Shown here: positions 2,296 to 22,042 of the stretch, one piece after another
How the letters are laid out: each line of letters starts with the position of its first letter
How positions within the stretch are numbered: position 1 is the first letter of the stretch
Source: an uncultured archaeon
GTDB taxonomy: Archaea > EX4484-52 > B79-G9
Assembly (NCBI GenBank): GCA_965370705.1
Contig: CBDUVR010000001.1
Span: 1-25,696 of the forward strand
Reading direction: 5' to 3'
DNA: 25,696 nucleotides
Position numbers and translations under genes: made by a program
Notes under the pieces: model-generated
The model's input: only the letters and a program-made list of their open reading frames with translations
Told to the model about the DNA's origin: nothing
Databases searched by the model: none

Positions 2296-2299
2296 TAAA

Positions 2300-3406
2300 A
2301 TGCCAAAAGGATTTACATATACATTGTTCGCATTGATAATAATGCTATCGTTGATTACGCTGATAAATATACAATCAGTATCTCAAAATAGCCTTGAGAC
2401 GTCCTCGAAAATCAGAAGTAACCTGTTGCAGAATAGTTTAAATGATATAAATGATGACTTATCAAGAAGCTCATACATTGCAACCAAAAGAGCTATCTTA
2501 AGCCTGATTGATTTTACGGTAACCAATGGGACGTTTATCAATAATACTGAATCCACTATATTTGATGTCAGCACTACAGGAGAATATAATGGAACAATGC
2601 TTCAGTTAATGGAAAACACTACAATTAATGACTGGACTGTATCAATACATAACATCCTGAACAAAATGGGGATAGATAACACAATATCTCTTAAAAACTA
2701 CACTATCAGGCAGGGAGACCTATATGATATAGAACTAACTACTGTTTATGAACTTGATATTTATGATCCGGTTTCCAAAATCCGTGTGAAAAAGAACACA
2801 ATACAAGAGATAACTGTAGACTATAACTCATTTGAAGATCCCCTGAATACTGTCAGAAGCAACCTGGTGTTCAGTACGGCAATAATTTCATGCAACTTAA
2901 CCGGAACATACGGGAAGGCGCTTACGTCAAAGACCAATGCAACCAACTGGACTGTCGGCAAAGTATTTAAATCAGCTGATTCCAGTGGAATCGGTTCGCT
3001 GTCAGCTTCCCTGAGAGCGGAGAAAATTCTTGTTACACATAACATCTCAAACTACAGTGTGTCTGATATAAATCAGTTCAAGGGTGTAATATCTGAAACG
3101 TCCGATGACCTTGCAGGTGCTACAATTCCAAAAATCATTGATACAAATGATGCATATTCCAATACAGATAATTCGTACATTGCAGCAATGAGTGATGAGA
3201 CTGACGAATGGATAAACAATATCTTAACGGATCAGGGAACGACCTGTTTCATAGAACATGAGCACGGTCCAACGCTTTTCGATCGCATGGAAGGGAATAC
3301 AACGTACGGCAAATACAGCGGGCCTGGTATTGCAACATTTATAGACCCGACGATTCTTCCGAAAAATCCGCAGAAAGAGCTTGATTTCATATACTGGAGC
3401 CAGTAA
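2300..3406 (+). CDS. Class III signal peptide (prepilin-like) protein, minor pilin/pilus accessory
   Basis: N-terminus MPKG|FTYTLFALIIMLSLITL has K-G followed by a hydrophobic helix, then an N/T/S/D-rich extracellular region with many N-x-S/T sequons. Confidence 0.7.
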   Translation: MPKGFTYTLFALIIMLSLITLINIQSVSQNSLETSSKIRSNLLQNSLNDINDDLSRSSYIATKRAILSLIDFTVTNGTFINNTESTIFDVSTTGEYNGTMLQLMENTTINDWTVSIHNILNKMGIDNTISLKNYTIRQGDLYDIELTTVYELDIYDPVSKIRVKKNTIQEITVDYNSFEDPLNTVRSNLVFSTAIISCNLTGTYGKALTSKTNATNWTVGKVFKSADSSGIGSLSASLRAEKILVTHNISNYSVSDINQFKGVISETSDDLAGATIPKIIDTNDAYSNTDNSYIAAMSDETDEWINNILTDQGTTCFIEHEHGPTLFDRMEGNTTYGKYSGPGIATFIDPTILPKNPQKELDFIYWSQ

Positions 3407-5570: not shown

Positions 5571-5876
5571 ACCAGTCTCTTGATAAGCAATATCGTCCTT
5601 GCATCAGCGCCTAACTATGTAAATAATAGTTGACCAGATATATATAATTTATCCGGAACAGCCTGTGTTCTGTCCAAAACACACGGATCCGGATATTTTC
5701 AGATAAATCGTATCTTTGAGAGACAATTTCTCTATTTTACTTCATCTCATCGTGTACGACGACACAAAACAATCATATTTTCCTCTTGGAACAAGTGCCC
5801 TTTATTAATTCTTCGGTACGATAACTTCTTAGTAAAAACAATAGAGATGGCTTCGAACTGGTGGAGATAGTTGCGT

Positions 5877-7202
5877 ATGTATTGGATAGATGGTTCTGTA
5901 TTTGAAAAAAAAGTCAGAGATAAAAAGGCCAGCATTGCAGTCGTAGGACTAGGGTATGTAGGGCTGCCGATTGCGATGACTTTTGCTAAAAAGGGGTTCA
6001 AGGTCTATGGCTATGATATTGACAAAAGTAAAATAAAGTCTCTGAAACAGAAGAGAAATTTTCTTGATGATGAAATGTGGATTGACAAAATACTTCAAAA
6101 AGCGCATACATTCAGCGCATCAGCCAATGTCGAGAATGCAGGAGCTCATGATGCAATCATTGTCGCTGTTCCCACTCCTGCTGACCCGGCAACTAAAAAG
6201 CCGATTTATGATTTTGTGGCATCTGCAGCAAAATATGTCGGCTGCAGCTTAAAAAAGGGTGCTTTGGTCATCCTGGAGTCAACAGTGGGACCCGGTACAA
6301 CAGAGGGCATATTCAGAAAAACGCTTGAGGATGTTTCCGGCCTCAAGGCAGGGATGGATTTCGGGTTATCGTATTCACCTGAGCGCATCAACCCGGGTGA
6401 TGATAAGCACAGGATCGATAAGATCCCAAAAGTTGTGAGCGGCATTGATGATTTGAGCGCTCGCGCATGCGCATGCCTATACCTGCAGATTGTGCCTTCT
6501 GTGTATAGAACATCAATGCTAAAGGAAGCGGAACTTACTAAACTCCTTGAAAATATCCAGAGGGATATGAATATTGCCCTTGCTAATGAATTTGCAAAGA
6601 TATGCGATATACTCGGTGCTGATGTGAAAAATGTCATTGAAGCAGCATCAACGAAATGGAATTTCTATAGGGTATTACCCGGATGCGGGGTCGGGGGGCA
6701 CTGCCTGCCTGATGACCCGTGGTTTTTGATTCATGAACTGGAAAAGAAAGGATATACATCGAATTTAATTAAAACTGCAAGAAAGACGAATGAAGAGATG
6801 CCTGCGTATACTGCACGCAAGGCAGCGAACCTTTTATGCAAGAAGCCAAATGGCTCTAAAATTGCGATTGTCGGGCTTGCCTACAAAGACAATGTTTCTG
6901 ATATGAGAAACTCTCCTGCTGAGGCAATCATCAAGGAAATGAAGAGCATGGGATACACAAATATCTTAGCTCATGACCCGCATGTTGGCAAGGTGGACTG
7001 GATAAAGACAGACAATTTTGAGAATACTCTAAAAGATGCAGAACTGGTGATAGTGGCAACACCTCACAAGCACATAAAAAACCTGTCTGCGAGGAATATA
7101 AGGAAACTTGCACCCCGTGCATCTGTTGTTGACGGCAGGAATGTACTTAACAAAAACGACTTTCTTTCAGAGAAGATAAAATATGCAGGTATAGGGCGGT
7201 GA
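5877..7202 (+). CDS. Nucleotide-sugar dehydrogenase, UDP-N-acetylhexosamine 6-dehydrogenase (WecC/WbpA/TviB) type
   Basis: Motifs GLGYVGLP (NAD), IVAVPTP, ILESTVGPGTT, YSPERINPG, catalytic GVGGHC and GLAYKDNVSDMRNSP. Start is ATG 5877 or TTG 5871. Confidence 0.9.
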   Translation: MYWIDGSVFEKKVRDKKASIAVVGLGYVGLPIAMTFAKKGFKVYGYDIDKSKIKSLKQKRNFLDDEMWIDKILQKAHTFSASANVENAGAHDAIIVAVPTPADPATKKPIYDFVASAAKYVGCSLKKGALVILESTVGPGTTEGIFRKTLEDVSGLKAGMDFGLSYSPERINPGDDKHRIDKIPKVVSGIDDLSARACACLYLQIVPSVYRTSMLKEAELTKLLENIQRDMNIALANEFAKICDILGADVKNVIEAASTKWNFYRVLPGCGVGGHCLPDDPWFLIHELEKKGYTSNLIKTARKTNEEMPAYTARKAANLLCKKPNGSKIAIVGLAYKDNVSDMRNSPAEAIIKEMKSMGYTNILAHDPHVGKVDWIKTDNFENTLKDAELVIVATPHKHIKNLSARNIRKLAPRASVVDGRNVLNKNDFLSEKIKYAGIGR

Positions 7203-8500
7203 TTGTTGTGGGTATGCCACTAATCGTGCCCATTCTCGGCACGCAGGTAGTTCTCGGTGCTTATGCCAAACTCAGGAAAAAGCCTTATGCTTTGCATAAT
7301 AAACCAGGTTACAGGCCGTCTCTGAGCGTCATAATCCCGGCTAAAAACGAGGGGCAGCGCATACAGTATGCTCTGGCGTCGCTTGAGATGCAGACATATC
7401 CTATCGAAAAGGTGTATATCATTGATGACTATTCGACAGACAATACTATTGAAGTTGTCAGAAAGATGCACTTTTTGACAAAAAAGTTTGAGATTGAATT
7501 GTACCATAATGAAAAATCAGTTGGCAAGACCCCTGGTGTCAAATTCGGCGCAAGGATTGCAACTACTGATAAAATAATGGTGCTTGATGCGGATACAATC
7601 CTTTCTGACCCGAAATACATTGAAAAGATTGTGAGAGCGCATTCAGATTCTAAAACAGGAAGTTCTTACGGCACTGTAAGGCCATTCTCAAAAAAGGAGC
7701 AGTTGAAGACACTTTTTGAAATGCTTCTTCTAAAGCATTATCCTGCTTCAAGAGAGCTTGTGATGCACTATAAAAACAAGGCAGAGATGCGCCCGCTGCA
7801 AAAACTGAAATATTATCTTCTCCGCTGGCCTGTTGAGAGGTACCGGGAGGCACTTTATCTTACTGACCAGTATTTTGCAAAAGACAGTGCGCTTCGTATG
7901 TTCGGGACAACCCTGTTCCCGATCGGATGCGGGGTGATGTATGACAGGAAGCTGCTGGAACAGGTTTTTGACTATTATGAATCCACACTTGGGGACAACC
8001 TCACGACATCAGAGGACATATTCATCGGATTTTCTCTTGTAAACATGGGCTACACAAACATACAGGTGCCGGATGCAACGATGATAAGCGCGGAACCGCG
8101 CGTTGACAGGCTACCGAAACAGCTTTTCCTGTGGAATTCTTCATTTCTGCAGAGTGCTTATTATTTTAAGAACATGACTCTTTCGCTGAAACCTAAAAAA
8201 GACAAGCCTGCTTACGGGTGGATAATCCTTGCGCCCATTTTTGAAAAAATCACATATCCTCTTGCGCTGGCATACCTTATCTGGTTTGACTGGATATATG
8301 CAGTGCTTACGATGATGATAGAATATCTCGCATATGTCTTTATATTGCGCATGTCAGACCCTAAGATGGGGAAGATACACTATTTGAAAATATGCGCTGT
8401 TGCGCTCCCGCTCAGGATTCTTAATCTTCTTTTGGATGTTTATGTGACCTTTCGATTTTTGGCAGACCTTGCTATTGGGAGGAGGAACTGGAGAAAATGA
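7199..8500 (+). CDS. Processive membrane GT2 glycosyltransferase (hyaluronan/chitin/PNAG synthase-like architecture)
   Basis: SVIIPAKNE, IDDYSTD, VLDAD (DxD), TTSED and QLFLW (QxxxW variant of QxxRW), with an N-terminal hydrophobic segment and several C-terminal TM segments. GTG 7199 overlaps the upstream TGA; GTG 7208 or ATG 7214 may be the real start. Confidence 0.85.
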   Translation: MIVVGMPLIVPILGTQVVLGAYAKLRKKPYALHNKPGYRPSLSVIIPAKNEGQRIQYALASLEMQTYPIEKVYIIDDYSTDNTIEVVRKMHFLTKKFEIELYHNEKSVGKTPGVKFGARIATTDKIMVLDADTILSDPKYIEKIVRAHSDSKTGSSYGTVRPFSKKEQLKTLFEMLLLKHYPASRELVMHYKNKAEMRPLQKLKYYLLRWPVERYREALYLTDQYFAKDSALRMFGTTLFPIGCGVMYDRKLLEQVFDYYESTLGDNLTTSEDIFIGFSLVNMGYTNIQVPDATMISAEPRVDRLPKQLFLWNSSFLQSAYYFKNMTLSLKPKKDKPAYGWIILAPIFEKITYPLALAYLIWFDWIYAVLTMMIEYLAYVFILRMSDPKMGKIHYLKICAVALPLRILNLLLDVYVTFRFLADLAIGRRNWRK

Positions 8501-9480
8501 ATGCTGAAAAAATAGTGGTCACCGGAGGCGCCGGGTTTATCGGCAGGCATCTTGTCCAGAGGATTCTTTCAATGAAAGACGATGTGTCCCTGACTGTTCT
8601 TGACAATTTTTCTGTTGGAATGAAAGAGAATCTCGCAGCGATTGATATGAATGGCAGAAAGTTTGATGTTGTGCGCGGCGACGTCAGGGATGAGAAAGTG
8701 CTGGATAAAGTACTGGATGGTGCAGATACAGTGTATCACATGGCTGCTGTTGTCGGTGTCGACAGGGTGCTTGCGATGCCTGAGGAGACATGGGATGTAG
8801 AGGTCAATGGCACGAGAACCCTTCTTGAGAAGTGCGAATGCTTTGGAGTAAAGCGGTTCTTTCTGGCATCATCTTCGGAATGCTATGGGAAATATGATGT
8901 CTCGAGGCTGCCTATGAAGGAGAGTGATTTCGTAGTGCCGAATACAAATTACGGGAAAGCTAAGCTTGAGTGCGAGAAGATGTGTGCAGAGTATGGCTCA
9001 CGGGGGGGGATGAGCTGCGTGGGTGTGAGGTATTTTAATGTTTACGGCAAATTGCAGAGTTTCAATGGGTATGTGATACCGAACATGATATGGCAGGCAT
9101 TGAATGGTGAGCCTGTTAAAGTACACGGGCATGGCAGGCAGCTGCGCGACTTTATGTATATTGACGATGCTGTTGACGCTACTATTAAGCTTGCAGAGAG
9201 CAAAGTTGATGGTGTGTATAACGTGGGCGCGGGAAAGCCTGTGAGCATCATGGATATCGCAAAGATGATAATACATCTTACCGGCTCAAGATCACAGGTA
9301 ATGCATGTCCCTATCAGGCGCCCGACAGATATTGAAAGCAAATCAGGGGATAATACGAAAATCAAAGAAGCAGTCGGGTGGACACCGGTACACGATATAC
9401 AATCGGGACTGGTGAAGACCATTGAGAATTATAAGAGGTGTTTAGATGAACGTAGTTGCAATATGTGCGCATCCGGATGA
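8497..9480 (+). CDS. NAD-dependent sugar epimerase/dehydratase (extended SDR)
   Basis: VTGGAGFIG, YHMAAVVGV, ASSSECYG, YxxxK (YGKAK), RYFNVYG and RDFMYIDD. ATGA overlap with the GT2 gene. Confidence 0.92.
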   Translation: MNAEKIVVTGGAGFIGRHLVQRILSMKDDVSLTVLDNFSVGMKENLAAIDMNGRKFDVVRGDVRDEKVLDKVLDGADTVYHMAAVVGVDRVLAMPEETWDVEVNGTRTLLEKCECFGVKRFFLASSSECYGKYDVSRLPMKESDFVVPNTNYGKAKLECEKMCAEYGSRGGMSCVGVRYFNVYGKLQSFNGYVIPNMIWQALNGEPVKVHGHGRQLRDFMYIDDAVDATIKLAESKVDGVYNVGAGKPVSIMDIAKMIIHLTGSRSQVMHVPIRRPTDIESKSGDNTKIKEAVGWTPVHDIQSGLVKTIENYKRCLDERSCNMCASG

Positions 9481-10096
9481 TATTGAATTTAATTGTGCAG
9501 GGACTCTTTTGAAGCACAAAGAGCAGGGGGATGAAGTTGTGATGATAACAGTGTCTAACGGTGCTACAGAAAATCACAGGCATGAAATCATCAGGAGCGA
9601 GAAAAACGCTATATTGGAAGCAAAGAGGGCTGCCTCTGTTATCGGTGCAAAACTTTACATCCTTGACTACAAAGCGCTTGATATTCCCTGCAATCACAAA
9701 ATCATTGGGGAGCTTGAGTCTATTATCAATAAAAATCATGCTGATACTGTGTATACGCATTGGCATGGCCATACGAACCAGGATCACAGGAGAGTAAGCA
9801 TGGCCAGCCTTGCTGCTGCAAGATGCGTCGAGCGGGTGCTGATGTGGGAAGAAGGGATACCGCACTCATCCTGCACTTCAGGGTTTAGCCCGCAGTTGTA
9901 CGTGGACATAACCGACCAGATGGATAAGAAGATAGAGGCCGTTCGTGCGCATGAGTCGCAGGTTGAGAAATATGGGAAAGAACTGATGGATGGGATTCTC
10001 GCACGTGCACGATACAGAGGATACCAGATTCGCGTGAAGTATGCTGAATGCTTCCAGGTAAATAGACTCGTAAATGACGGCTTTTTAAGCAAATAA
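9446..10096 (+). CDS. LmbE/PIG-L family N-acetylhexosamine deacetylase
   Basis: AHPDDIE metal motif, HxDH-like NQDH, and YVDITDQMDKKIEAVRAHESQ. Confidence 0.9.
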   Translation: MNVVAICAHPDDIEFNCAGTLLKHKEQGDEVVMITVSNGATENHRHEIIRSEKNAILEAKRAASVIGAKLYILDYKALDIPCNHKIIGELESIINKNHADTVYTHWHGHTNQDHRRVSMASLAAARCVERVLMWEEGIPHSSCTSGFSPQLYVDITDQMDKKIEAVRAHESQVEKYGKELMDGILARARYRGYQIRVKYAECFQVNRLVNDGFLSK

Positions 10097-10106
10097 TGGC
10101 GATATA

Positions 10107-11750
10107 ATGAATGTATGTCCAACAATTGGTTCAATGAAAACAGTGGATTCTTTAGCGAATGCGGTGTATGAATCTTACGTTCGCACAAATGAAAGGCTGA
10201 ATAATGACCCTATGTGGAAAAAAAGGGTGCTTTCCAACAGGAAAAAGATTGCGAGCCACATAAAGAAGTTCCATAAGGATTCCGGTACACTGACTTTTGG
10301 GGTGCGGGAAAAGCTGGAGATACTGCGCAGTAAAAATGACTGCATATTCCTGATGAGTGCACATCAGACAAATTTTGTACCTTACTCCGGGGTTGTGAGG
10401 AAAACTACGCTGATGCATGCTGTAAAAGAAAAGCTTGCGCGGTTGAGTGGCGTGGAGGTGGTTGAGTTCTACGGGGTTGCCAACCAGGACATCGCATCAT
10501 CATGGCCATGGCTGAAAATGACACAATTTCCCAGCATCTTCCATAAAAACGGTGTTTTTGAACTTTCATATGAAATGAAAAAAGAGTATGAAATGAAGAT
10601 GCATGCTGCTGTCCCTAATCCTGATTGGAGCGATATCTTAAAATGGGGCGGTGATACGAGAGAATGGATGAAAGTCTGCCTGAATTATATTGAAAATAGC
10701 GGATGCACTGTTGAGCCTGATAGCAAAAATGAACTTTATCGCAATTATGAACTGTTTATGGGTATATTCAAGGAGTCAATGGAGTCTGCCCGGAATTTTG
10801 CTGAGTTTAATGCCATCATGCTTTCAAAGATTGTGAATAATCATTTTTGCCATGACACTCTTTTTTCACTTTTTACTGACTGCCAAAAGGTTTTTGACAA
10901 AGAGTTCCTGTTTTTGCTTGAAAATTACAGGAAATATTATTCGTGTCTTGCTGATATCAATGGTATACAGAAGCAAGATATGATTGCTCCGTTCTGGTAT
11001 CATTGCGAGTGTCTTGGAAAGGTTGAGCTTGGGATTATGGAAGAGAAGGATGTGCTGAAGTTATCCGGAAAGTGTCCGGCATGCGGCAAAGTGCATTCTT
11101 TCGCGCTTAGTAAGGATAATATGGCTTCGGATTTTTCAATGATTTCGAAGCATATATCTGCAAGGGCAAGGCCTATGACTATTGTGTTTTTCGAGGGGCT
11201 TTCAGTGAATATGTATGTCGGGGGCGCACTTGCAGGCAAATGCTATTTGAAAGAAGCAAAACATATTGCTGATAACATGAAGCTGAATTTCCCGCCTGTT
11301 GCTGTCTGGCGGCCGAAGGATACGTATAGTGGTCTTGGCCAGCTTTCGTGTGAATTGTTTGAAAAGAGCGCATGTGACGGCCGCAGTCTTGAGGATACTA
11401 TTTACTGTCTTGGAAGTGAGATTAATATGATTAATGAGCGGATTAGCGGGATTGATGCGCTTATAAAACGCACAACTTCGATGCATGAGCGCAATAAGCT
11501 TATCGCAGAAAAAAACAGTATTCGCAAAGAGTATGATCTGAAACTGTATTCAAAGAAATTGTCTGATCTGAAGAAGATTCCAAACGCGCAGTCTGTAATT
11601 CCGTCTATCATGGATTATGCGATAAATATCGGACTTGAGAGGACGCGCGACAAATGGCGCGAACATCTGATGAACAACGGCAACCTGGCAGAGGACATAA
11701 TCATGGATTCAGTATTAAAATACAGAGGTAATGAACATGGCGCACAATGA
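10107..11750 (+). CDS. BshC-like putative amine-acylating (amino acid) ligase with Zn ribbon and C-terminal coiled coil
   Basis: Motifs colinear with BshC as recalled: EKLEILRSKNDCIFLMSAHQ (cf. ENIExLxxxxxxvvtGQQ), PYSGVVRK (cf. PLYTxxK), VEVVEFYGVANQD (cf. vPVFWiAxEDHD), ARP...YVGG (cf. RP...ayvGG), FPPVAVWRP (cf. MPxvvPR). Similar length to BshC and a late coiled coil. HQTNFVPY also resembles the WbqC HQPNFxPW motif. Confidence 0.6.
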   Translation: MNVCPTIGSMKTVDSLANAVYESYVRTNERLNNDPMWKKRVLSNRKKIASHIKKFHKDSGTLTFGVREKLEILRSKNDCIFLMSAHQTNFVPYSGVVRKTTLMHAVKEKLARLSGVEVVEFYGVANQDIASSWPWLKMTQFPSIFHKNGVFELSYEMKKEYEMKMHAAVPNPDWSDILKWGGDTREWMKVCLNYIENSGCTVEPDSKNELYRNYELFMGIFKESMESARNFAEFNAIMLSKIVNNHFCHDTLFSLFTDCQKVFDKEFLFLLENYRKYYSCLADINGIQKQDMIAPFWYHCECLGKVELGIMEEKDVLKLSGKCPACGKVHSFALSKDNMASDFSMISKHISARARPMTIVFFEGLSVNMYVGGALAGKCYLKEAKHIADNMKLNFPPVAVWRPKDTYSGLGQLSCELFEKSACDGRSLEDTIYCLGSEINMINERISGIDALIKRTTSMHERNKLIAEKNSIRKEYDLKLYSKKLSDLKKIPNAQSVIPSIMDYAINIGLERTRDKWREHLMNNGNLAEDIIMDSVLKYRGNEHGAQ

Positions 11751-12348
11751 ACTTGTAATCAAAAACTACAACACATGGATAAAAGAAAACCCCGGCATAA
11801 GCATAATGGGCTACGGCAGTGAACAGTCACAGGACATACGGTTTAATATGCTTTTTAAGGTCGGTGATATGAATGAGAGGACGATTCTTGATGTCGGATG
11901 CGGAAGAGGTGATTTTGCAGCAAAAGCAACACAGAAAGGAATAAAATACAAAAAATACTTAGGTACAGACATAGTCCCGAAGATGATAGAGATTGCAAAA
12001 AAAACAAATACTGCCAAAAATACTGAATTCAAAGTAATGGATATTTTGAATTGCAGTGAAAAGCTGTCTTTTGATTATGTTATCATGTGCGGTCCAATGA
12101 ATCTCAAGACACCGCATACTGAGGATATTGCAAAAAAGCTAATAAAAAGGGCATTTGAGATTGCAAAAATCGGTGTTGCATTTAATATGACCAGTGTTTT
12201 TGGTGATGTCGAGTACAGGACAGATCATACGCACTACTTCGACCCGTTTGATGTCCTGCGGTTTTGCAGTACTATGACGAGGAATCTGGCTTTTGACCAT
12301 ACGTATCTGCCGCACGATTTTACGGTTTTTATGTATAAGAAATCATAG
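11731..12348 (+). CDS. Class I SAM-dependent methyltransferase (glycan-locus type)
   Basis: ILDVGCGRGD, YLGTDIVPKMI and FDYVIMCG. Overlaps the upstream gene by 20 bp. Confidence 0.9.
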   Translation: MNMAHNELVIKNYNTWIKENPGISIMGYGSEQSQDIRFNMLFKVGDMNERTILDVGCGRGDFAAKATQKGIKYKKYLGTDIVPKMIEIAKKTNTAKNTEFKVMDILNCSEKLSFDYVIMCGPMNLKTPHTEDIAKKLIKRAFEIAKIGVAFNMTSVFGDVEYRTDHTHYFDPFDVLRFCSTMTRNLAFDHTYLPHDFTVFMYKKS

Positions 12349-12433
12349 GATATTGGTGATAATTGGAGAATCCTAAGCTTTTTGATTGCCGGTTCATACT
12401 TTATATGCAATAAAAAAGGGAAATATGAGTGAA

Positions 12434-12731: not shown

Positions 12732-12952
12732 TTTATATAGGATCTAAGATAAAATAATATATAGAAGTAGAAGTATTAATATTTATTACTCATATTTTTT
12801 ATCGTATATAAACTATACACGATAAAATCTGCGGAAATTCAATGCAATTTGTGCATTTCCTGTACCTTTCATCTATGCTATTGTTGCGAAAGGAAGCTTA
12901 AAATTGAAATTGGAGAATCATATGGTTATTTTATGATTTTAGGGTGATTTGT

Positions 12953-13483
12953 ATGGTCTGGGCAAGGACGAAACTCGTAATATTTGATAATCTTTATGAA
13001 CAGGGAGAAAAGGATATTCTTTTTAATTATTCGGGGCCGCACCCTGAAAAGTTCTATAATAAAGTGCGGGCCATGATGCACGATATTTTTAATGTGCCTG
13101 CAGGGCGCATCCAGGAGATGAACTATACATGGGAAACACAGAATAATGCAGACAAGTTCAACATACGGTGGCGTACTGTTAAAGAAATGGATATTTACAC
13201 GTACTTGAGATATGATGTGATAATTACCGGCACTTCTTCTAACGGGGAAGGATCTGTTTCCATAAGGCTAAAGCCAAGAATTGTAACTGAATATCCACAG
13301 GATACATTGATTCAGCAGTCTATACTGTATGAGATGGCGCGGCGTTTCTGGCATAATATGTTTTATGCCAAACAGAGGCAAAAGTGGATGGAGATGGGCA
13401 GGGACCTGGCTTCTGAGTTTGAAAACACTTTAAAGGAATACGGGGAGGAGTTGAGGCATCATGCCCGTGTTAAAGTACAGTGA
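12953..13483 (+). CDS. Hypothetical protein, first of a tandem paralog pair
   Basis: GGTGA at 12943-12947 plus a 5-nt spacer places the start at ATG 12953 rather than GTG 12944. Alpha/beta pattern shared with the next ORF. Confidence 0.75.
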   Translation: MVWARTKLVIFDNLYEQGEKDILFNYSGPHPEKFYNKVRAMMHDIFNVPAGRIQEMNYTWETQNNADKFNIRWRTVKEMDIYTYLRYDVIITGTSSNGEGSVSIRLKPRIVTEYPQDTLIQQSILYEMARRFWHNMFYAKQRQKWMEMGRDLASEFENTLKEYGEELRHHARVKVQ

Positions 13484-13970
13484 TGAACTCACTCACGAGA
13501 CAGACAATGTTGTCATAAGCTACAAGGGGAAGGAACCGTTTCGCATCAGACGGCATGTGGAAAGTATTCTCAGGTCTACGCTTGAAATTGATGCGCCGAA
13601 GTTTTATCTGCATTATATTGCATGGGATGTTACCGATGGTGCTTATAAGGGTGAGTGGAGAGCTTATAAGCCCTGGGACAGATGGACAGGCATAAATATA
13701 ATTGTGCGAACATGGGGACAGCAGACGCTGGGGGATCCTGAAAAGAACGGGTGGATGAAACTGAAACTGATAGGCACACTTGATACAAAATATGAATACA
13801 CACACAGCATTCAAAAGAGTTTGTGGTGGTCGTATAATTATCTTTTTTATAATAAGAATCGCTCGAATACATTTGAGGAAGCGAGGGATTTTTATTTCAG
13901 GGTTCTTGCTGAGATAAAAAAGCTTTACGGGATATACAGGAAAGAAGAGGCTGTGGCACCGAAGATTTAA
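13461..13970 (+). CDS. Hypothetical protein, second of a tandem paralog pair
   Basis: 169 aa, overlaps the upstream paralog by 23 bp. Shared pattern: ISYKGKEP vs FNYSGPHP, YIAWD vs YTWE, LDTKY vs IVTEY, IQKSL vs IQQSI, YLFYNKNR vs NMFYAKQR. Confidence 0.8.
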   Translation: MPVLKYSDELTHETDNVVISYKGKEPFRIRRHVESILRSTLEIDAPKFYLHYIAWDVTDGAYKGEWRAYKPWDRWTGINIIVRTWGQQTLGDPEKNGWMKLKLIGTLDTKYEYTHSIQKSLWWSYNYLFYNKNRSNTFEEARDFYFRVLAEIKKLYGIYRKEEAVAPKI

Positions 13971-14476
13971 TCTCCTCTGAGCCTGTCCTGTATGTTCTTC
14001 AGAAGGTCAAGTATGTGCTCGTTTTGGGTTCTTAAGTCTTTTATTTCCAGAAGAATTGTGTTCACATCTGCCTGTCCGGTGCCTGCTCCGCTTGTTATTC
14101 GAGACTGATTGAAAAATTCTCTTTTTTGTTCATCTGTTGAGTGGTTGGTTTCTGGCATTTGCAAGGGCTTGTCTGGTTGTGGGGGGGGTCTGTCGGCGCC
14201 TTTTGGAAGCGTAAGCGGGTCATTGATGTCAAGCATTTGTTGATTCTGTACTCCTGGTTCCATTAGCGCGGTGGGGGGTTCCGCCTGGTTCTCAAGTTTG
14301 TAGTTGCTGCTTAGCTGCTCTTTTTCCGGGGACTGTCTGCTGCTGCCTTCCAGTACTTTTTTTGAGTATGAACCGGAGTCGTCAAATGCCTCGTCTATTT
14401 CCTGATCTATGCTTTTTTTGTGGAATTTTGTTTTCAACTTGTCTACAAAGCCGAGGTTTAGACTTATTATGATCAC
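13967..14476 (-). CDS. Hypothetical protein: basic N-terminus, disordered P/Q-rich middle, short C-terminal coiled coil
   Basis: Open 169-aa frame ending ILLEIKDLRTQNEHILDLLKNIQDRL. Start uncertain because the GTG lies inside a GGTGA SD-like motif. Confidence 0.7.
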   Translation of the reverse strand: MIIISLNLGFVDKLKTKFHKKSIDQEIDEAFDDSGSYSKKVLEGSSRQSPEKEQLSSNYKLENQAEPPTALMEPGVQNQQMLDINDPLTLPKGADRPPPQPDKPLQMPETNHSTDEQKREFFNQSRITSGAGTGQADVNTILLEIKDLRTQNEHILDLLKNIQDRLRGD

Positions 14477-14565
14477 CTGTCTCTATTCAAAAATTATTTA
14501 TTCTGGCTAATGTAATATATTATTATTATGTTGGATTATATATATTTTGGATTTTTGTGTGAAGT

Positions 14566-16632
14566 ATGGATGAAAAATTGAGGGAAAAGTTTGTTGATGA
14601 GAGATGGACGAAAAGCAATGAGCCTGTGGGCTATATTGTAGGGGTTACCCCGGGGTTTTCGCAGTTTGAGCAGGGTGAGGAGAAGCTCACGAACATGGGG
14701 CTTGCAAGAAAAATAATGAAAGCTGCCCGTCTCGGGTTTGATTTCTGCCAGATTGATTATGAAGCTCTTTCTGAGATGTTTGAGGCTGATATTAAAGAGC
14801 AGATTGCGCATATCAAGAGCAGCCAGGGGAATATTGATACAGGCAGGAAGTTCGAGGTTGGCCTGCACCTCCAGACAGACCTTGATCTGTGCATTGCAGG
14901 GGCTTATGAATGGAAGATCATGCATGATCGACTTACCAAGGGCGCGTATTCTGCAAGAAGGCTGGTTGAGGCAAAATATTTCCTGTTTCATACTTCGTCG
15001 CGCATACGCCCGCATGTGACGTTTGATGTAGGGCAGCAGGAGCCGAGGGTTGCTTTGTATTCATTTGACGGGAAGAATCTGGCGCAGTTCATGCAGGAGG
15101 TAGATGATGGCACATACGTGGATCCTGCAAGAGGCTCGGTAACATGCCCCACATCAACTCCTGACGGTACAAAATTCGTAAGCATGCAGGATTGGTTCAT
15201 GGGCCGGTTCATAACCATACTTTTCAATGCTATGGGTGCGCCAGCGGATGTAAGCAGTGTCGCATTCTTCGATAACTTTATGCTAGAACAAAACGGTACT
15301 GGTTTTCAAGAGGGATATGACAAAAATGTAGTACAGTACCAGAAACTTATAGCTGAATTGACCAAAGAAATTAATATACGAAAACGTAATATGAGCATTG
15401 AATGGAAAAATAAACAAACGCAACTTTTAATGCAAAAGCAATATCTTCAACAAAAAAATATAGTAGTACCCGCACAAATTGAAATTGATCTTAAAGAGAT
15501 CGAAACAGAGATACAAACCTTAAATTCTGGCTCTATGGAGACTGAAATACAAAATAGAGTATTAACAGAAAGAAAAGATATTGAACAAGGAATCAAAGAT
15601 GTTAACACCGTAAGACAATATCTCGAGAGAACCGACTTCAACGACGTCTTCGACTTCTGGCGCAGGCACGGCTCAGAAGCAGAAGAGCAGGTGGCATACC
15701 GCATCATTGCAAAGTACATGTGGCTGACACATGACCCGTTGTGGGCAGATATCGTCGGCATGCAATATGACCCGGACCAGATAACGTGGCGCAATGAACT
15801 CGGGTATGAATACTACTCAAAAGACAAAAAATCACAGGAGAAGAATGGCCCTACACTAAAAATACTTGTTGAAAAACTGATCACTGCTGTTGCTGCGAAG
15901 TATATCCAGGGGCATCTTTTTGTGAAACATGAAAGATGGTCTATGAAAATGGATGACAAGGAGTTAACATCTGACATATCTGTATATGAATACACTAAGG
16001 AATCCGGTATGAAGATATATATTGAAACAGCAATGCCGCCGCAGGGACAGGAAGGGCAGCTGAGGATCATGAGCGCCAATGACCATGTGAAACTTGTGAA
16101 AAATCTTGATAAAGGCGTTATCACTTCATATTGCGTTGACTTTGAGCACCTTACAGTAAACTACATCCGCGTCAATGAGGACATAGAATCCCTGAAAGAC
16201 GGCGACGCCAAATATATAACTATGGTGCATATTAATGCGCCGCGCCCTATCATGGGCGCCCATGCCCCGGTCGAGAGGCTGTCGCGCGATATGCAGGTAA
16301 TATATCGCTGGCTGTACCTGATGAGACAGAAGGGGATGAAAAATTCTTATCTTATATGGGAGATGGGCTCATATGGTGTAAAGGAAAGCGCGGTGGCTTT
16401 CAGGAACCTTATGCATGAGTTAAGCAAGGATACTGACCCGCTCAAGCTGCCAAAGGAATTTTACGGGATTGATGAGATGTTTGAACAGCAGCAGTGGGTA
16501 AATATGAGAGAGCATGCGTATGATGCGCTCAAGGGTGTGATAGCAAACCCTGAAGAGGATCATGGCCTCTTGTCTACTGAGGCTGTGAAGAAGAACAAGC
16601 TTGCTGAGTGGCTTGCCGGCAGGTACAAGTAA
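14566..16632 (+). CDS. Endonuclease IV/xylose isomerase-like TIM-barrel metalloprotein with a large internal insertion
   Basis: Ordered metal-ligand motifs EVGLHL, LFHTS, YIETA, CVDFEH, MVHIN, GAHAP and IWEMG. About 340 aa, including a coiled coil, lie between FHT and IET. Confidence 0.7.
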   Translation: MDEKLREKFVDERWTKSNEPVGYIVGVTPGFSQFEQGEEKLTNMGLARKIMKAARLGFDFCQIDYEALSEMFEADIKEQIAHIKSSQGNIDTGRKFEVGLHLQTDLDLCIAGAYEWKIMHDRLTKGAYSARRLVEAKYFLFHTSSRIRPHVTFDVGQQEPRVALYSFDGKNLAQFMQEVDDGTYVDPARGSVTCPTSTPDGTKFVSMQDWFMGRFITILFNAMGAPADVSSVAFFDNFMLEQNGTGFQEGYDKNVVQYQKLIAELTKEINIRKRNMSIEWKNKQTQLLMQKQYLQQKNIVVPAQIEIDLKEIETEIQTLNSGSMETEIQNRVLTERKDIEQGIKDVNTVRQYLERTDFNDVFDFWRRHGSEAEEQVAYRIIAKYMWLTHDPLWADIVGMQYDPDQITWRNELGYEYYSKDKKSQEKNGPTLKILVEKLITAVAAKYIQGHLFVKHERWSMKMDDKELTSDISVYEYTKESGMKIYIETAMPPQGQEGQLRIMSANDHVKLVKNLDKGVITSYCVDFEHLTVNYIRVNEDIESLKDGDAKYITMVHINAPRPIMGAHAPVERLSRDMQVIYRWLYLMRQKGMKNSYLIWEMGSYGVKESAVAFRNLMHELSKDTDPLKLPKEFYGIDEMFEQQQWVNMREHAYDALKGVIANPEEDHGLLSTEAVKKNKLAEWLAGRYK

Positions 16633-16744: not shown

Positions 16745-17959
16745 TTAGCGCACAAGTTCAGGGCTTGGCTTCCAGTCTGCTTTGTTGTATTCGTCTATGA
16801 TTCTTTCATATGTGCTTTTTGTCATGTTTGCAATGTTCTGCCAGTTGTATGTGCTTTTTACAGTATTGTATGCGTTGGTCACTATATTTTCTTTTAAGCC
16901 ATTGTCTTTGAGAACCCGACTGATCCCGATCGCGAGTGATTCTGAGTGGCCGGACCATACTTTCAGACCGTTTACTTCATGCTGGATTATTTCTGATAAT
17001 CCCCCTGTGTCTGATGCCACGACGGGCGTCCTTGATGCCATACCTTCAAGCGCTACAATGCCGAAGGGCTCATAGCGCGAAGGAATAACAACTACATCTG
17101 AGATGTGCAAGAGCGCATCAAGGGTATCATCATCTGTATAGCCTGTGAATAAGACTTTGTTTCCCAAGCCCATCTGGTTTGTCAGGTCCCTGCATTTTTC
17201 GGTCATGTAGCCTTCGCCTGTAATTACGAATTTTGCTTCAGGAACTTCTTTCAGTACAGACCCGACTGCTCCAACAAGCACGTCAACACCTTTTTCCCAT
17301 ACGTGCCTCCCGACGAAGAATACGATTTTCTCATACGGGAGGGCAAACTTGTTTCTTATTTCTGCATAGCGATCATAATTGAAATCATATTTGGACATGT
17401 TCACTCCGTTGGGTATTACATCGATTTTATCCCATGGTGTGTAGAATGATGAGCATACGCTTTGCTTCATGAAATTTGAGCAGGTGATTACACGCCATGA
17501 TTCATATACCATCTTCCTTTCTATGTCGCGTATCAGTTCCTGGCGGTCTTCATATATCCCGCCGCGGCGGCCTTCTTCAAGTGAATGTATTGTCGAGAGT
17601 AATGGGATTCTGTAGATATGCTTGAGGCCAATTGCTGCTGTTGCAACAAGCCAGTCATGCGCATGTATCAAGGAGATATCTTTGAATTCTTCGATGACTT
17701 TGCTTGCCTGGTTCTGCATCAGGACATTCATCTGGAGTGCCCATGAGGGGAAGTCTTCTGCAGGTATGTTGTCTGCATCAAAGCGGAATACATGAACCCC
17801 GTCTATGTTTTCATAGCCCTGGCTGCCTGAGAAAGCGCATGCAATGACGATGGGCTCTATCCCTGCTTTTACCTGTGCACGTGTCAGGTCATCTACATGC
17901 GTTCCAAGCCCGCCTACTTTATGCGGTGGATATTCTGATGTCAGGTGAAGTATTTTCAT
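16745..17959 (-). CDS. GT4 glycosyltransferase, probable alpha-glucan/glycogen synthase-type
   Basis: SEYPPHKVGGLG, IHAHDWL, FVGRHVWEKG and PSRYEPFGIVALE (EX7E). Confidence 0.9.
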   Translation of the reverse strand: MKILHLTSEYPPHKVGGLGTHVDDLTRAQVKAGIEPIVIACAFSGSQGYENIDGVHVFRFDADNIPAEDFPSWALQMNVLMQNQASKVIEEFKDISLIHAHDWLVATAAIGLKHIYRIPLLSTIHSLEEGRRGGIYEDRQELIRDIERKMVYESWRVITCSNFMKQSVCSSFYTPWDKIDVIPNGVNMSKYDFNYDRYAEIRNKFALPYEKIVFFVGRHVWEKGVDVLVGAVGSVLKEVPEAKFVITGEGYMTEKCRDLTNQMGLGNKVLFTGYTDDDTLDALLHISDVVVIPSRYEPFGIVALEGMASRTPVVASDTGGLSEIIQHEVNGLKVWSGHSESLAIGISRVLKDNGLKENIVTNAYNTVKSTYNWQNIANMTKSTYERIIDEYNKADWKPSPELVR

Positions 17960-18711
17960 ATGTTATCCTTTTGTTCTTTTTTCGGGGTATACTCAGAGGT
18001 GTCCCAGTTTTTGAGCACCCATGAATAATCTCTTACTATGTCCTTTGTCCATGTCGATGCTTCAGGACTGAAGACATTGACTTTGGATTCCTCTGGCGAA
18101 TAGAACCGGATAAGGGCGTGCTTCATCCATTCTTTGTTTACATGTATGCTGTTTGAGCTCTGGCTTGCACGCCATTCTATTTGTTTTACTGCTTCTGTGA
18201 ACCCGTTTGTTACGCCGGGGGTGCGCTGTTCCTGCAGGGAATAATAGCTTGTTATCAGGGGTTTTCTCAGCGCGTTTTGGAGTGTTATGCCTGCAGGGAA
18301 CATCTGCCATTCATGGGTGTGAATAAGGTCTATGTTTCCTTCGTGATGGTAGATGTCTGCTACGACCCTGCCGATTTCCATGTTTAATGTGATTGCCCAT
18401 GTGAGGGGTGAGTATGATTTGACGGCGTTGCCGACGTAGTGGATTTCTGCGCCGCCGATGTTTGAGGTCTGCCCTTCTTTCCAGGGGTCAAAAGATACTA
18501 CGTGCGTGTTTATGCCTCTCTGGACAAGGCCTTCTGCAAGATTCTTGCACTGGAGGGAGATTTGGGTTATGTCTCTTGGGAGGTATTCTGCGGTGATTAT
18601 TACGACGTTTTTTGGCTTTTTCTCGTATGCAACGTCTGAGGGACCTACGCGAAGCTGTTTTAGGATTTTTTCAATTATTTTCTGGTTCATCTGATTTAAT
18701 GTGTTTGGCAT
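17956..18711 (-). CDS. GT4 N-terminal (acceptor) domain-only protein, paralog of the adjacent GT4
   Basis: ITAEYLP, IHTHEWQ and LITSYYSLQEQR parallel TSEYPP, IHAHDWL and LLSTIHSLEEGR. No C-terminal donor domain or EX7E. 4-bp overlap with the downstream gene. Confidence 0.75.
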   Translation of the reverse strand: MPNTLNQMNQKIIEKILKQLRVGPSDVAYEKKPKNVVIITAEYLPRDITQISLQCKNLAEGLVQRGINTHVVSFDPWKEGQTSNIGGAEIHYVGNAVKSYSPLTWAITLNMEIGRVVADIYHHEGNIDLIHTHEWQMFPAGITLQNALRKPLITSYYSLQEQRTPGVTNGFTEAVKQIEWRASQSSNSIHVNKEWMKHALIRFYSPEESKVNVFSPEASTWTKDIVRDYSWVLKNWDTSEYTPKKEQKDNI

Positions 18712-20037: not shown

Positions 20038-21870
20038 TTACCTGACTTTTTTCAGGGCTTTGTTGTGCGCTATAATATAATTTTTCGCAAGGTTCTTCCA
20101 GTCTGCAAGTTTTGAGAGTCTTTTGGCATGATATTTTCTTGAGATCATCTCGCTTTTGTCTAATTTCACAACTTCCAGAAGCATGTTTTTCAAATCATCA
20201 GTGGTTTCTTCATATTTCTTTGTGCTCCTGTTGAGGATGTATATCCCGGGATTTGCATGGGTCTTTACTTCTTTTTCCATGAATTTTCCGTAGCCGGATA
20301 CGTCTGTTGTTATTGTGAGGGCGCCGTTTGATATGACTTCAAGGGGTGTGTAGCCCCATGGCTCATACAGTGACGGGAACACCCCGAGGCTGCAGCCGAT
20401 TGCAAATGAATTGTAGCTGAGGGAGAGCATCCTGTCTGAATTTGAAAGGTATGCAGGGTAGAATATTATCTTCACCCTGTCTTCTTCCCTGTTCAGAAGG
20501 CTGTTTTCTTTAAGCATCCTGATTATTATGTCAGAGCCCTGATCATGCAGTTCGAATGCGCACAGGGGCGCGCTGCCACCGTTTCTTGATTTGAAGGATG
20601 CCGCGAGTTTTCTGATGTCTATTTTCTGGTATTCTGTAAGATAATCTGAGAGCTTTATGTCTGTGTTTCCGGATGTGAGTGAGTCTACTATGTTTGCGCT
20701 GATGTCTACAGAAAGGTCATCCACGTATTCTTTTATGCCGGAGAACAGGGATATGTTTTCAAGAACCTCGTGGTTCTCGCTTTTTGTGTTTGCAGGTATT
20801 AGTATGAACGCGAATACGTCAGTGTTATCCTTTTTTTCTTTGAGTTCATTGTTCAGTTTCCCGAGACTCTGGATGAACATGTCTATGCCTTTGTTGCGGA
20901 CCTCGTACCTGCCGGAGATGAACATGATTCTCGGGTCTATCAGGTTGATTTCGTAATATGGCTTGAAGTAGCCTGAAAGGAAATCCATTATCTTTTCCTT
21001 GTATTTGCGGTGGAGATAGATGCATTCCTCCATTGACGGGTATTTCCCGAGATTGAGGCCGTTTGGAAGTATGACGTCCGGCTTTTTTGAGAGTATATAT
21101 TCTGCTTCCCTCCCGGTTGTCTCTGATACTGTTGTGAAGGTGTCACATGCTTTTGCGCATGCGCATTCTGTCTGGTGCTTTGCTTCGACATTGTATTCGT
21201 AGGCTTTTTTCGGGTCTACTACCCTGCCGCTGTTCAGCCCGGTTTCTATTTCATTAAGCAGGTTATCGCTGTAGCTTGCCATGGTCCTGCCGAGCATTGT
21301 GGCGTGCGTGGTAAAGACTGTTGCAATTTTTGATTTTTTTGATTTTAGGTAGAGAAGAGCTACTCCTGCCATCCATTCGTGAAACTGGGCTACGACATTC
21401 TTAAGGCGCAGGTCTTTTTCCAGGTTTTCCAGAAGGATTCCTGCTGCATATGACCAGACTACCGGGTCCCCAAACCAGGAATCAGAGCGGATCGAGTCTA
21501 TTTTGTGATTCATCCATAATTCTTTCTTGATGTCATTCAGGTGGTCTCTGTACCCGTCGATGTCCAGCAGTATGCAGTTTGGCCTGGCTCTCGCGGAGGT
21601 CCAGATGCCAAAATGGCATATAATGCCCTTGCTTTTTAGCTTTTTAAATGTCGGCTTTAGTATTTTTGACTCTTTTTCCTCGAATTCAACTTTTGCCTTA
21701 TCAGGATTGTAGATGCCGATTGTATAGTACTTATCACCATAATGCTTTGCCATCTGCTCTGACTTGCTGTGAATTACGGTGTAGATGCCGCCGACTTTGT
21801 TTGCAACTTCATATGACACTTCAAAAAGATACTCTCCTTTGGCTGATATGTCATTCATGAGCTTTAACAC
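20038..21870 (-). CDS. GT3-family glycogen synthase (eukaryote/Bacteroidota-type)
   Basis: FEVSYEVANKVGGIYTVI, FHEWMAG, FTTHATMLGR, SGRYEVRNKGIDMF and GVFPSLYEPWGYTPLE. Confidence 0.92.
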   Translation of the reverse strand: MLKLMNDISAKGEYLFEVSYEVANKVGGIYTVIHSKSEQMAKHYGDKYYTIGIYNPDKAKVEFEEKESKILKPTFKKLKSKGIICHFGIWTSARARPNCILLDIDGYRDHLNDIKKELWMNHKIDSIRSDSWFGDPVVWSYAAGILLENLEKDLRLKNVVAQFHEWMAGVALLYLKSKKSKIATVFTTHATMLGRTMASYSDNLLNEIETGLNSGRVVDPKKAYEYNVEAKHQTECACAKACDTFTTVSETTGREAEYILSKKPDVILPNGLNLGKYPSMEECIYLHRKYKEKIMDFLSGYFKPYYEINLIDPRIMFISGRYEVRNKGIDMFIQSLGKLNNELKEKKDNTDVFAFILIPANTKSENHEVLENISLFSGIKEYVDDLSVDISANIVDSLTSGNTDIKLSDYLTEYQKIDIRKLAASFKSRNGGSAPLCAFELHDQGSDIIIRMLKENSLLNREEDRVKIIFYPAYLSNSDRMLSLSYNSFAIGCSLGVFPSLYEPWGYTPLEVISNGALTITTDVSGYGKFMEKEVKTHANPGIYILNRSTKKYEETTDDLKNMLLEVVKLDKSEMISRKYHAKRLSKLADWKNLAKNYIIAHNKALKKVR

Positions 21871-21980
21871 CTTTTTTTACGGAATATTTTTTTCACTATA
21901 GAATCGTCTTTATCTCAAATCAAGCTGTTTTAGGACTCTAACGTGATAATCCTGCGGATATAACCCCTCTTTTAGTTAGA

Positions 21981-21988
21981 TATATATA
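21981..21988. promoter_or_regulatory. Palindromic TATA-like box in the divergent glycogen synthase/debranching enzyme intergenic region
   Basis: TATATATA inside a 172-bp divergent spacer. No clear BRE assigned. Confidence 0.3.
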
Positions 21989-22042
21989 CATCTTCGTTTA
22001 AATAGTTTTAGTGAATGTTTCTGATATTCGTCAGGCGATTTT

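Follow-up and report, generated by a model that had tools for sequence, protein, structure and literature searches.

An archaeal zinc-ribbon relative of BshC with a profile-level link to WbqC, encoded in a putative glycan-tailoring operon

We identified a distant archaeal relative of the bacillithiol (BSH) biosynthesis protein BshC in a 25,696-nucleotide stretch of DNA from an uncultured archaeon (GTDB lineage EX4484-52, B79-G9; contig CBDUVR010000001.1). This stretch, referred to here as the window, makes up an entire contig of an archaeal metagenome-assembled genome (MAG) that consists of 1.56 Mb in 306 contigs and is 89% complete. The open reading frame (ORF) at 10107-11750 on the forward strand has an ATG start, encodes 547 amino acids (aa), and is the fifth of six tightly packed genes in an operon. 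Its product, which we call the ligase, belongs to a distinct and almost purely archaeal subfamily of BshC relatives characterized by an HQ motif and a zinc ribbon. Judging from its place in a sugar-chain operon beside a sugar deacetylase and a methyltransferase, the ligase probably acts on glycans or glycolipids of the cell surface, where it would exchange the acetyl group of a sugar for an amino acid, rather than taking part in the synthesis of an antioxidant thiol. The gene and the parts of its product are as follows.

10107-11750, forward strand: predicted ligase of the BshC superfamily, resembling class I aminoacyl-tRNA synthetases (aaRSs), archaeal HQ/Zn-ribbon subfamily, 547 aa (homolog profiles, AlphaFold2 (AF2) model and Foldseek)
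10359-10403, forward strand: motif AHQTNFVPYSGVVRK, residues 85-99, directly after strand beta1; counterpart of GQQ in BshC and HQP in WbqC
10983-11111, forward strand: Cys4 zinc-ribbon beta-hairpin subdomain, residues 293-335 (C300, C302, C323, C326)
11388-11591, forward strand: C-terminal helical (coiled-coil-like) hairpin, residues 428-495, corresponding to the dimerisation domain of BshC

Relationship to BshC

The homologs of the ligase (50 word-indexed matches and 280 clusters from an exhaustive phmmer search) form one family. The BshC models PF10079, searched genome-wide, and TIGR03998 have no match in this genome. PF10079, which represents the Rossmann-like domain of BshC, is matched by 14 of 23 aligned homologs with a best E of 2.8e-9, and the homologs that match it share 33% identity with the window ligase. 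A profile built from the 23 sequences reaches BshC among PDB sequences at E 0.21 only.

Comparison of profiles with profiles gives a clearer result. The archaeal family profile comprises 156 representatives, and the true BshC set consists of 11 genes from bacterial genomes that score above the TIGR03998 cut-off. The two are matched by hhalign at 97.4% (E 1.1e-11) over 317 columns. The alignment pairs the ligase motif AHQTNFVPYSGVVRK with GQQ..GPLYT.YK of BshC, FYGVANQD with FW.A.DDHD, ISARA with SPNALLRP, and YVGG..G..Y with V.GPGE..Y. A preliminary description of this DNA, made from the sequence alone, had reported BshC-like motifs in the right order, and the profile alignment matches them one to one. 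Within the first motif the conservation among the 156 representatives is high (H86 in 154, Q87 in 153, N89 in 148, G95 in 149 and K99 in 141).

The AF2 model of the ligase, calculated from the 23-member alignment, has a pLDDT of 90.5 and a pTM of 0.89. Its top match among PDB structures in Foldseek is BshC of B. subtilis (4WBD) with E 6.6e-16 and TM 0.56 over the full length, the alignment reaching residue 534; class I LysRS, MetRS, GluRS and CysRS follow in the ranking. The 30 best Swiss-Prot models are all named "putative cysteine ligase BshC" (10-15% identity, TM 0.52-0.59). As in BshC, the model has a Rossmann core, connecting-peptide (CP) subdomains and a C-terminal coiled-coil domain within a protein of about 540 aa, and its C-terminal helices span residues 428-455, 459-476 and 478-495.

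The ligase therefore has the same fold, length, motif order and PIG-L/LmbE partner as BshC (YllA; PDB 4WBD; PF10079, TIGR03998). However, the two are only 10-15% identical. The GQQ signature after strand beta1 is not present in the ligase, which has AHQ instead and whose family carries HQ(P/T)N, and an invariant Cys4 ribbon takes the place of a segment that lacks cysteines in BshC. Additionally, the family is essentially archaeal and is found in a context of glycan or lipid-carrier synthesis, without BshA and thiol redox genes. In a tree with BshC the archaeal proteins form a separate clade on a long branch. The features that define this subfamily, namely the HQ(P/T)N motif, the PFWYHCxC...CxxC zinc ribbon and an adjacent PIG-L gene, are all present in the window. 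The ligase is a distant archaeal relative of BshC that belongs to this HQ/Zn-ribbon subfamily.

Link to WbqC

The AHQ that replaces GQQ had been likened in the preliminary description to the HQP motif of WbqC, with the proposal that the ligase bridges the two families. We assembled a WbqC set from genes of two bacterial phyla that score above the PF08889 cut-off; WbqC matches are present in the control genomes of Caulobacter vibrioides and Bacteroides thetaiotaomicron. Their proteins carry (A/V/I)HQP.(Y/F)LPW at the N-terminus, which bears out the comparison of motifs. The archaeal family profile matches WbqC at 88.3% in hhalign with 9 WbqC sequences, and at 94.9% (E 4.7e-8, 153 columns, query residues 79-271) with 16. 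In contrast, five unrelated control families from the same loci (PIG-L, short-chain dehydrogenase/reductase (SDR), family 4 glycosyltransferase (GT4), DUF354 and family 2 glycosyltransferase (GT2)) score no higher than 1.5% against all three profiles. The bridge is real because the BshC and WbqC profiles do not detect each other (0.1%). At the level of profiles, the archaeal family is thus a link between two families that are blind to one another.

A search with the structure of the ligase against AFDB clusters and the ESM Atlas returned BshC-like and LysRS-like clusters, with no WbqC among the matches listed. For this reason the WbqC link rests on the profiles, the motif and the common PIG-L partner. 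PF08889 itself has no direct match to the window ligase. WbqC proteins, which are encoded in bacterial polysaccharide loci, have a single domain and about 230 aa; they are less than half as long as the 547-aa ligase and lack its zinc ribbon and helical C-terminal domain. The ligase does contain the HQP.(Y/F)LP motif and the homologous N-terminal domain, and WbqC (PF08889) has in common with the ligase family an N-terminal HQP.(Y/F).P..G...K motif, a PIG-L neighbor and an occurrence in glycan clusters.

A PIG-L gene lies directly downstream of the bacterial WbqC gene and on the same strand at 11 of 26 loci from two phyla (L097, L100, L102, L103, L105, L107, L108, L118, L119, L122 and L123). The PIG-L proteins adjacent to WbqC are the closest relatives seen of the window deacetylase, at 94-117 bits. 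At one such locus (L115:1633-11814) the WbqC-PIG-L pair is found inside a glycan cluster with a GT2, two GT4 genes, a methyltransferase and two DegT aminotransferases. The role of WbqC in glycyl transfer is putative, and a literature search found no functional paper on WbqC.

The zinc ribbon and class I aminoacyl-tRNA synthetases

The four cysteines of the ligase CxC...CxxC motif (C300, C302, C323 and C326; nucleotides 11004-11084) are invariant in 155-156 of the 156 representatives. In the AF2 model they belong to a four-stranded beta unit formed by residues 293-335. The preliminary description had noted these cysteines, which are indeed present and nearly invariant, and had considered the ribbon an insertion added to the BshC framework. 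This latter part does not hold, because hhalign sets the ribbon against a BshC segment of similar length that is free of cysteines. From this alignment we read the ribbon as a subdomain common to both proteins that binds metal in the ligase version, and it looks retained rather than simply inserted.

The ribbon also has a possible counterpart among the aaRSs. Comparison of the family with class I LysRS from relatives of the window archaeon gave hhalign values of 68%, 7% and 8.5% with 5, 4 and 16 LysRS sequences, respectively. All three of these low-probability alignments place the ribbon on the CxxC...CxC knuckle of LysRS, the HQPN loop on TPSG, and PYSG on HIGN, a hint that the ribbon was retained from an aaRS-like ancestor. 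In Foldseek the ligase matches class I LysRS (1IRX) with E 2.8e-8, and LysRS clusters of the ESM Atlas are found with TM 0.49-0.51. The predicted structure contains the Rossmann catalytic fold of the class I aaRSs with a CP1 insertion.

The ligase shares the Rossmann catalytic fold with MshC and the class I aaRSs, and especially with LysRS (1IRX, PF01921), whose cysteine knuckle occupies the place of the ribbon in the connecting-peptide region according to the low-probability alignments. However, the ligase differs from LysRS in having PYSG at the HIGH position, no KMSKS and no evident anticodon-binding domain, and the profile support for this relationship is unstable.

Genomic context of the homologs

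To describe the genomic context of the family we compiled a census of 80 loci that encode ligase relatives in species-representative genomes, nearly all of which are archaeal MAGs. The taxa are Bathyarchaeia, Methanomethylicus, Methanomicrobia, Methanoperedens, Archaeoglobales, Syntrophoarchaeum, Altiarchaeota, Thermoplasmatales and genomes labelled Nanohalarchaeota. At 56 of the 80 loci the ligase homolog has a PIG-L gene next to it on the same strand, upstream in 18 and downstream in 38. Nine of the remaining 24 loci are cut within about 700 nucleotides of the gene, and several others are second copies in genomes where the other copy has a deacetylase. Two-copy genomes (L014/L015, L029/L033, L027/L036, L035/L041, L030/L047 and L054/L065) have one copy with an adjacent deacetylase and a second without, and in L015 a GT4 gene directly follows the second copy.

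Neighboring genes were clustered, their representatives annotated, and the results mapped on a tree rooted with BshC. Four contexts emerged. In Methanomicrobiales, Archaeoglobales and Methanoperedens, the context comprises a PF00953 polyprenyl-phosphate N-acetylhexosamine (HexNAc)-1-phosphate transferase, the small membrane protein DUF1616, the ligase, PIG-L and DUF354, often with VanZ; VimE-like (NF053580, 98 bits) and FemAB-like (TIGR03019, 52 bits) genes also occur. In Bathyarchaeia, a short AglJ-like dolichyl phosphate glycosyltransferase is followed by PIG-L and then by the ligase. A group of Methanomicrobia from peat has an archaeal GlmU, the ligase, PIG-L, an SDR, a radical SAM enzyme and a GT4. 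The clade that includes the window has a dehydrogenase, a membrane GT2, an SDR, PIG-L, the ligase and a methyltransferase. All four contexts consist of sugar-nucleotide, glycan or lipid-carrier chemistry. The preliminary description would have been contradicted by a lack of profile or structural similarity to BshC and WbqC, or by homologs occurring without deacetylases and sugar-nucleotide genes; neither is the case, and the census finds the homologs beside deacetylases and genes for sugar nucleotides and glycans.

In the Methanomicrobiales, Archaeoglobales and Methanoperedens loci (L042-L080, for example L052:8208-15925) the ligase-deacetylase pair belongs to a conserved block with a PF00953 transferase of the WecA/MraY type, a DUF1616 protein with three transmembrane helices, DUF354, a VimE-like gene and one to three FemAB-like genes. 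This block looks like a pathway of the lipid-linked glycopeptide type. FemAB-like genes co-occur with the ligase homolog in 14 loci.

The operon

The other five genes of the operon in the window are as follows.

5871-7202, forward strand: NDP-sugar 6-dehydrogenase of the UDP-HexNAc type (WecC/TviB/WbpA-like), with all three Pfam UDPG_MGDP_dh domains
7199-8500, forward strand: membrane GT2 of the synthase type (Pfam Glycos_transf_2 and Glyco_tranf_2_3; hydropathy; AF2 model)
8497-9480, forward strand: NAD-dependent sugar-nucleotide epimerase/dehydratase of the SDR family (Pfam Epimerase, 191 bits)
9446-10096, forward strand: PIG-L/LmbE-family de-N-acetylase with an AHPDD motif (Pfam PIG-L, 70 bits)
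11731-12348, forward strand: class I methyltransferase dependent on S-adenosylmethionine (SAM) (Pfam Methyltransf_25 and Methyltransf_31), overlapping the ligase gene by 20 nucleotides

Neighboring genes in the operon overlap by 4, 4, 35 and 20 nucleotides, and the single gap, of 10 nucleotides, precedes the ligase ORF. The order of LmbE deacetylase, ligase and methyltransferase given in the preliminary description is as stated, with this gap before the ligase and the 20-nucleotide overlap after it. Hydropathy analysis found no transmembrane helix or signal segment in the ligase, the deacetylase or the methyltransferase.

The dehydrogenase matches the NCBIfam NDP-sugDHase model at 401 bits. 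Of the more specific models, that of the archaeal UDP-ManNAc dehydrogenase scores best (275 bits), followed by TviB (232 bits), but neither score reaches its cut-off. The gene is kept in the operon at loci L001-L005 and L008. Similarly, the NCBIfam matches of the SDR (RmlB, LegB, GalE and TviC) are all under their cut-offs. The best PDB match of the deacetylase is diacetylchitobiose deacetylase (E 8e-17).

By hydropathy, the GT2 contains a single transmembrane helix at its N-terminus and about three at its C-terminus, and it carries QLFLW at the position of QxxRW. Its AF2 model (pLDDT 86) matches PcManGT (6YV7, E 3e-16), a minimal cellulose-synthase-like mannosyltransferase, as well as hyaluronan synthase (TMq 0.62) and BcsA in Foldseek. 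In contrast, the TM values against GtrB, ArnC and DPMS are only about 0.32.

Contigs from two cold-seep metatranscriptomic libraries, which are 90-97% identical and represent related strains, span 6848-10102 and 11508-12008. They touch five of the six operon genes in part, namely the dehydrogenase, GT2, SDR, PIG-L and methyltransferase genes (in X15 all of these except the dehydrogenase gene), and one (11508-12008) crosses the junction between the ligase and methyltransferase genes. We do not count these contigs as proof of transcription, as positions of about 10400-11500, which make up most of the ligase gene, are uncovered and DNA carry-over is possible. The DNA runs that contain the window stretch are marine sediment and cold seep metagenomes.

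Partnership with the methyltransferase and distribution

Orthologs of the methyltransferase (65-92% identity) are found only on contigs that also carry ligase orthologs (L001-L007). Furthermore, a 718-aa metagenomic protein (P0047) consists of a ligase homolog with an ortholog of the window methyltransferase (36% identity, E 4e-33) fused at its C-terminus. The ligase part of this protein lacks the counterpart of the helical hairpin at residues 428-495. This fusion is a Rosetta-stone link between the ligase and the methyltransferase. A predicted complex of the two window proteins scored 0.00, which gives no answer and weighs neither way. PDB matches of the methyltransferase (such as ToxA) cover the SAM-binding region only, and those in the ESM Atlas are generic class I methyltransferases; neither search gave a clue to the atom that accepts the methyl group.

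Relatives with ligases of 40-92% identity retain the operon. All 7 other species of the genus have the ligase, whereas searches of 33 genomes outside the genus, 8 from the two other genera of the family and 25 from the rest of the order, did not find it. The operon is thus restricted to a single genus within a small-genome lineage of marine sediments and cold seeps, and this distribution suggests that the ligase and its operon were acquired by this genus, possibly as a surface trait.

Other features of the window

Six ORFs in 7-3406 and 12944-16632 have no significant Pfam or NCBIfam match (762, 368, 179, 169, 169 and 688 aa). The synteny of the first two (762 and 368 aa) upstream of the operon is kept in L004 and L005, whose ligases are 64-65% identical to that of the window, and the last four (179, 169, 169 and 688 aa) are conserved only in the closest relatives, L001 and L002. 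Metagenome contigs of several samples break or diverge just past the methyltransferase stop, at 12340-12420, with loose ends at 12340, 12375 and 12417. This region is a strain-variable junction that marks the 3' boundary of the operon. Further downstream, positions 16745-18711 on the reverse strand contain a complete GT4 gene (404 aa) followed by a gene of 251 aa with the GT4 N-domain alone. Near these, at 20038-24103, are genes for a eukaryote-type glycogen synthase (PF05693) and an amylo-alpha-1,6-glucosidase (GDE_C).

Proposed function

Taking the operon as a whole, our judgment inclines somewhat toward the ligase being a cytoplasmic, class-I-aaRS-like amide ligase. It would put a new acyl group, probably an aminoacyl group, on the amino sugar that deacetylation leaves in a membrane-bound glycan, after which the product would be methylated. 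UDP-HexNAc, possibly oxidized to a uronic acid by the dehydrogenase and epimerized by the SDR, would be the donor for the GT2. This synthase-type enzyme would move the sugar to a membrane-bound acceptor, for which a lipid carrier, a glycolipid and a nascent chain are candidates. The PIG-L deacetylase would then expose the 2-amino group on the cytoplasmic face. The ligase, working as a pair with the upstream deacetylase, would activate a carboxylic acid (an amino acid is the most likely one) and amidate the freed 2-amine with it, and the co-translated methyltransferase would methylate the new residue. The reaction of MshC provides a model, as Cys-AMP is formed and then attacked by the amine of GlcN-inositol. 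The homology, fold, conserved motifs, gene pairing, operon structure and methyltransferase fusion are the observed basis of this scheme, whereas the ATP-dependent adenylation (proposed after MshC and the aaRSs), the donor acid, the acceptor and the methylated atom are inferred.

Deacetylation followed by aminoacylation of a sugar has a precedent in the Wbp/Vim pathway of Porphyromonas gingivalis and Tannerella forsythia. In these bacteria VimE strips the 2-N-acetyl group of a di-N-acetyl hexuronic acid, and VimA, a member of the FemAB family, then adds Ser or Gly to give a "linking sugar" whose amine takes the C-termini of secreted proteins (PMC7468200). Both this logic and the UDP-HexNAc dehydrogenase (a WbpA-type step) resemble what is proposed for the window operon. 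The window contains no vimA or vimE homolog, and in other archaea VimE-like and VimA-like genes are neighbors of the ligase, so that these loci pair BshC-like and PIG-L genes with VimE-like and VimA-like genes. However, the enzymes belong to unrelated families (PIG-L versus CE4, and BshC-like versus FemAB), the methylation step has no counterpart in the Vim pathway, and a role as a sortase acceptor is speculation here. A link to archaeosortases proved not to be specific: the genome has three PF09721 matches, but such matches occur in 35 of the 41 genomes searched in the order, this one among them, and the ligase is missing from most of these.

Several points weigh against the proposed function. 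Taken alone, the ligase protein has no match in Pfam (to E 10) or NCBIfam (to E 1), and a phmmer search against PDB sequences returned nothing meaningful, the best being alpha-hemolysin at E 0.12. The HIGH and KMSKS signatures were not found in the ligase in the low-probability hhalign comparison with LysRS, and the use of ATP is therefore an assumption. Synthase-type GT2 enzymes normally extrude the polymer during synthesis, which leaves little room for cytoplasmic tailoring, so that a sugar nucleotide or a soluble glycoside may be the acceptor instead. To our knowledge, biochemical activity has never been shown for any member of the BshC superfamily. The ligase activity of BshC itself, the putative addition of L-cysteine to GlcN-malate, had never been reconstituted in vitro as of a 2015 review, which suggested that the open active site of BshC may require a further partner or cofactor yet to be identified (PMC4360819).

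Other observations speak for a thiol. On this alternative, which we judge unlikely, the ligase is the last enzyme of a bacillithiol-like pathway in which a glycosyltransferase makes GlcNAc-X, PIG-L acts as BshB, the ligase adds cysteine, and an NmbA-like N-methylation follows. The order of deacetylase, BshC-like protein and methyltransferase mirrors BshB, BshC and NmbA, and the best NCBIfam model for the deacetylase is BshB1 at 74.5 bits. However, the cut-off for that model is 182 bits, all BSH-family scores are far under the curated cut-offs, PF10079 and TIGR03998 find nothing in the genome, and the PIG-L gene of the operon is the single PF02585 match genome-wide. A GT4 with weak similarity to BshA (125 bits; cut-off 274) and MshA (132 bits) is encoded 5 kb away at 16745-17959, which also counts against a glycan. 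Yet this gene is on the opposite strand beside the glycogen synthase and debranching genes, and none lies inside the operon, in agreement with the preliminary description. The glycosyltransferase of the operon is the membrane GT2 of the synthase type, which is accompanied by a dehydrogenase and an epimerase that BSH synthesis does not need. In other archaea the homologs sit with lipid-carrier transferases.

A class I methyltransferase is found directly beside bshC in 8 of the 11 true bshC loci, all from one bacterial phylum (L086, L088, L089, L090, L091, L093, L094 and L096), which keeps the thiol pathway alive. These proteins have the N-terminal motif W(Y/F)..WFG..YL.VY.HR and may be N-methyl-bacillithiol synthases. 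However, they resemble the window methyltransferase in the SAM-binding motif alone (26% identity over 83 aa). Archaeal homologs of BshA and BshC have been noted in InterPro and suggested to make BSH, but BSH has never been detected in archaea (PMC7278568), and a survey of RefSeq found no archaeon with the full BSH pathway (bioRxiv 10.1101/2025.07.06.663066). Additionally, a search of the 89% complete genome found no bacilliredoxin (PF06491) and no Bdr or YpdA match at cut-off. As the glycosyltransferases that accompany the ligase act in membranes or on lipid carriers and the genome does not appear to encode redox partners of bacillithiol, aminoacylation of a deacetylated surface-glycan sugar fits better than a low-molecular-weight thiol.

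We consider it just as improbable that the tailoring takes place on a sugar nucleotide, with UDP-HexNAc or its uronic acid being deacetylated, N-aminoacylated and methylated before the GT2 polymerizes or transfers it. All three tailoring enzymes are soluble, and the donor would have to be complete before a synthase-type GT2 could use it. The VimE and VimA steps are drawn on UDP-GlcNAc(3NAc)A, which the Wbp pathway yields (PMC7468200), and VimE-like and VimA-like genes are found near the Methanomicrobiales and Archaeoglobales homologs. However, the polyprenyl-phosphate transferase that is a partner in many loci makes a lipid-linked HexNAc before any tailoring. Furthermore, the characterized PIG-L/LmbE enzymes known to us (PIG-L, MshB, BshB, Dac and HpnK) act on GlcNAc glycosides and not on UDP-sugars.

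The least probable alternative is that the protein is not an ATP-dependent ligase but uses another donor (aminoacyl-tRNA or an acyl phosphate) or has no catalytic role and serves the deacetylase or methyltransferase as a scaffold or specificity subunit; the missing HIGH and KMSKS motifs, the tRNA-binding enzymes among its structural neighbors, the FemAB-like genes in 14 homolog loci (a family known for tRNA-dependent transferases) and the resistance of BshC to reconstitution are compatible with it, but the near-invariant H86, Q87, N89, G95 and K99 at the class I active-site loop argue for catalysis and no anticodon-binding domain is evident.

Implications

The amide ligase acting on a membrane-bound glycan can be placed in a broader scheme, which is speculative and to which we give rather low credence. 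BshC, WbqC and the archaeal HQ/Zn-ribbon family may form a superfamily of amino-sugar N-aminoacyl ligases derived from a class-I-LysRS-like ancestor, with the archaeal branch keeping the zinc knuckle, and a membrane glycolipid or surface polymer may receive from this operon an N-(methyl)aminoacyl hexosaminuronic acid residue. If so, archaea would have their own, non-homologous equivalent of the Wbp/Vim linking sugar, which might also offer an amine handle for attaching surface proteins or host-derived lipids.

New here are the WbqC link, quantified against control families, the pairing of WbqC with PIG-L, the association of the ligase with a methyltransferase, including their fusion, the context of a synthase-type GT2 and a dehydrogenase, the genus-restricted distribution and the parallel with Vim. 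BshC is needed for bacillithiol synthesis, but its reaction was not reconstituted as of 2015 (PMC4360819), and WbqC is only a name. The archaeal branch links the two, and offers concrete residues and possibly better-behaved proteins with which to approach the chemistry of this fold. The family points to a widespread "deacetylate then aminoacylate" tailoring of archaeal envelope glycans or glycolipids, of which the window would carry a compact six-gene version.

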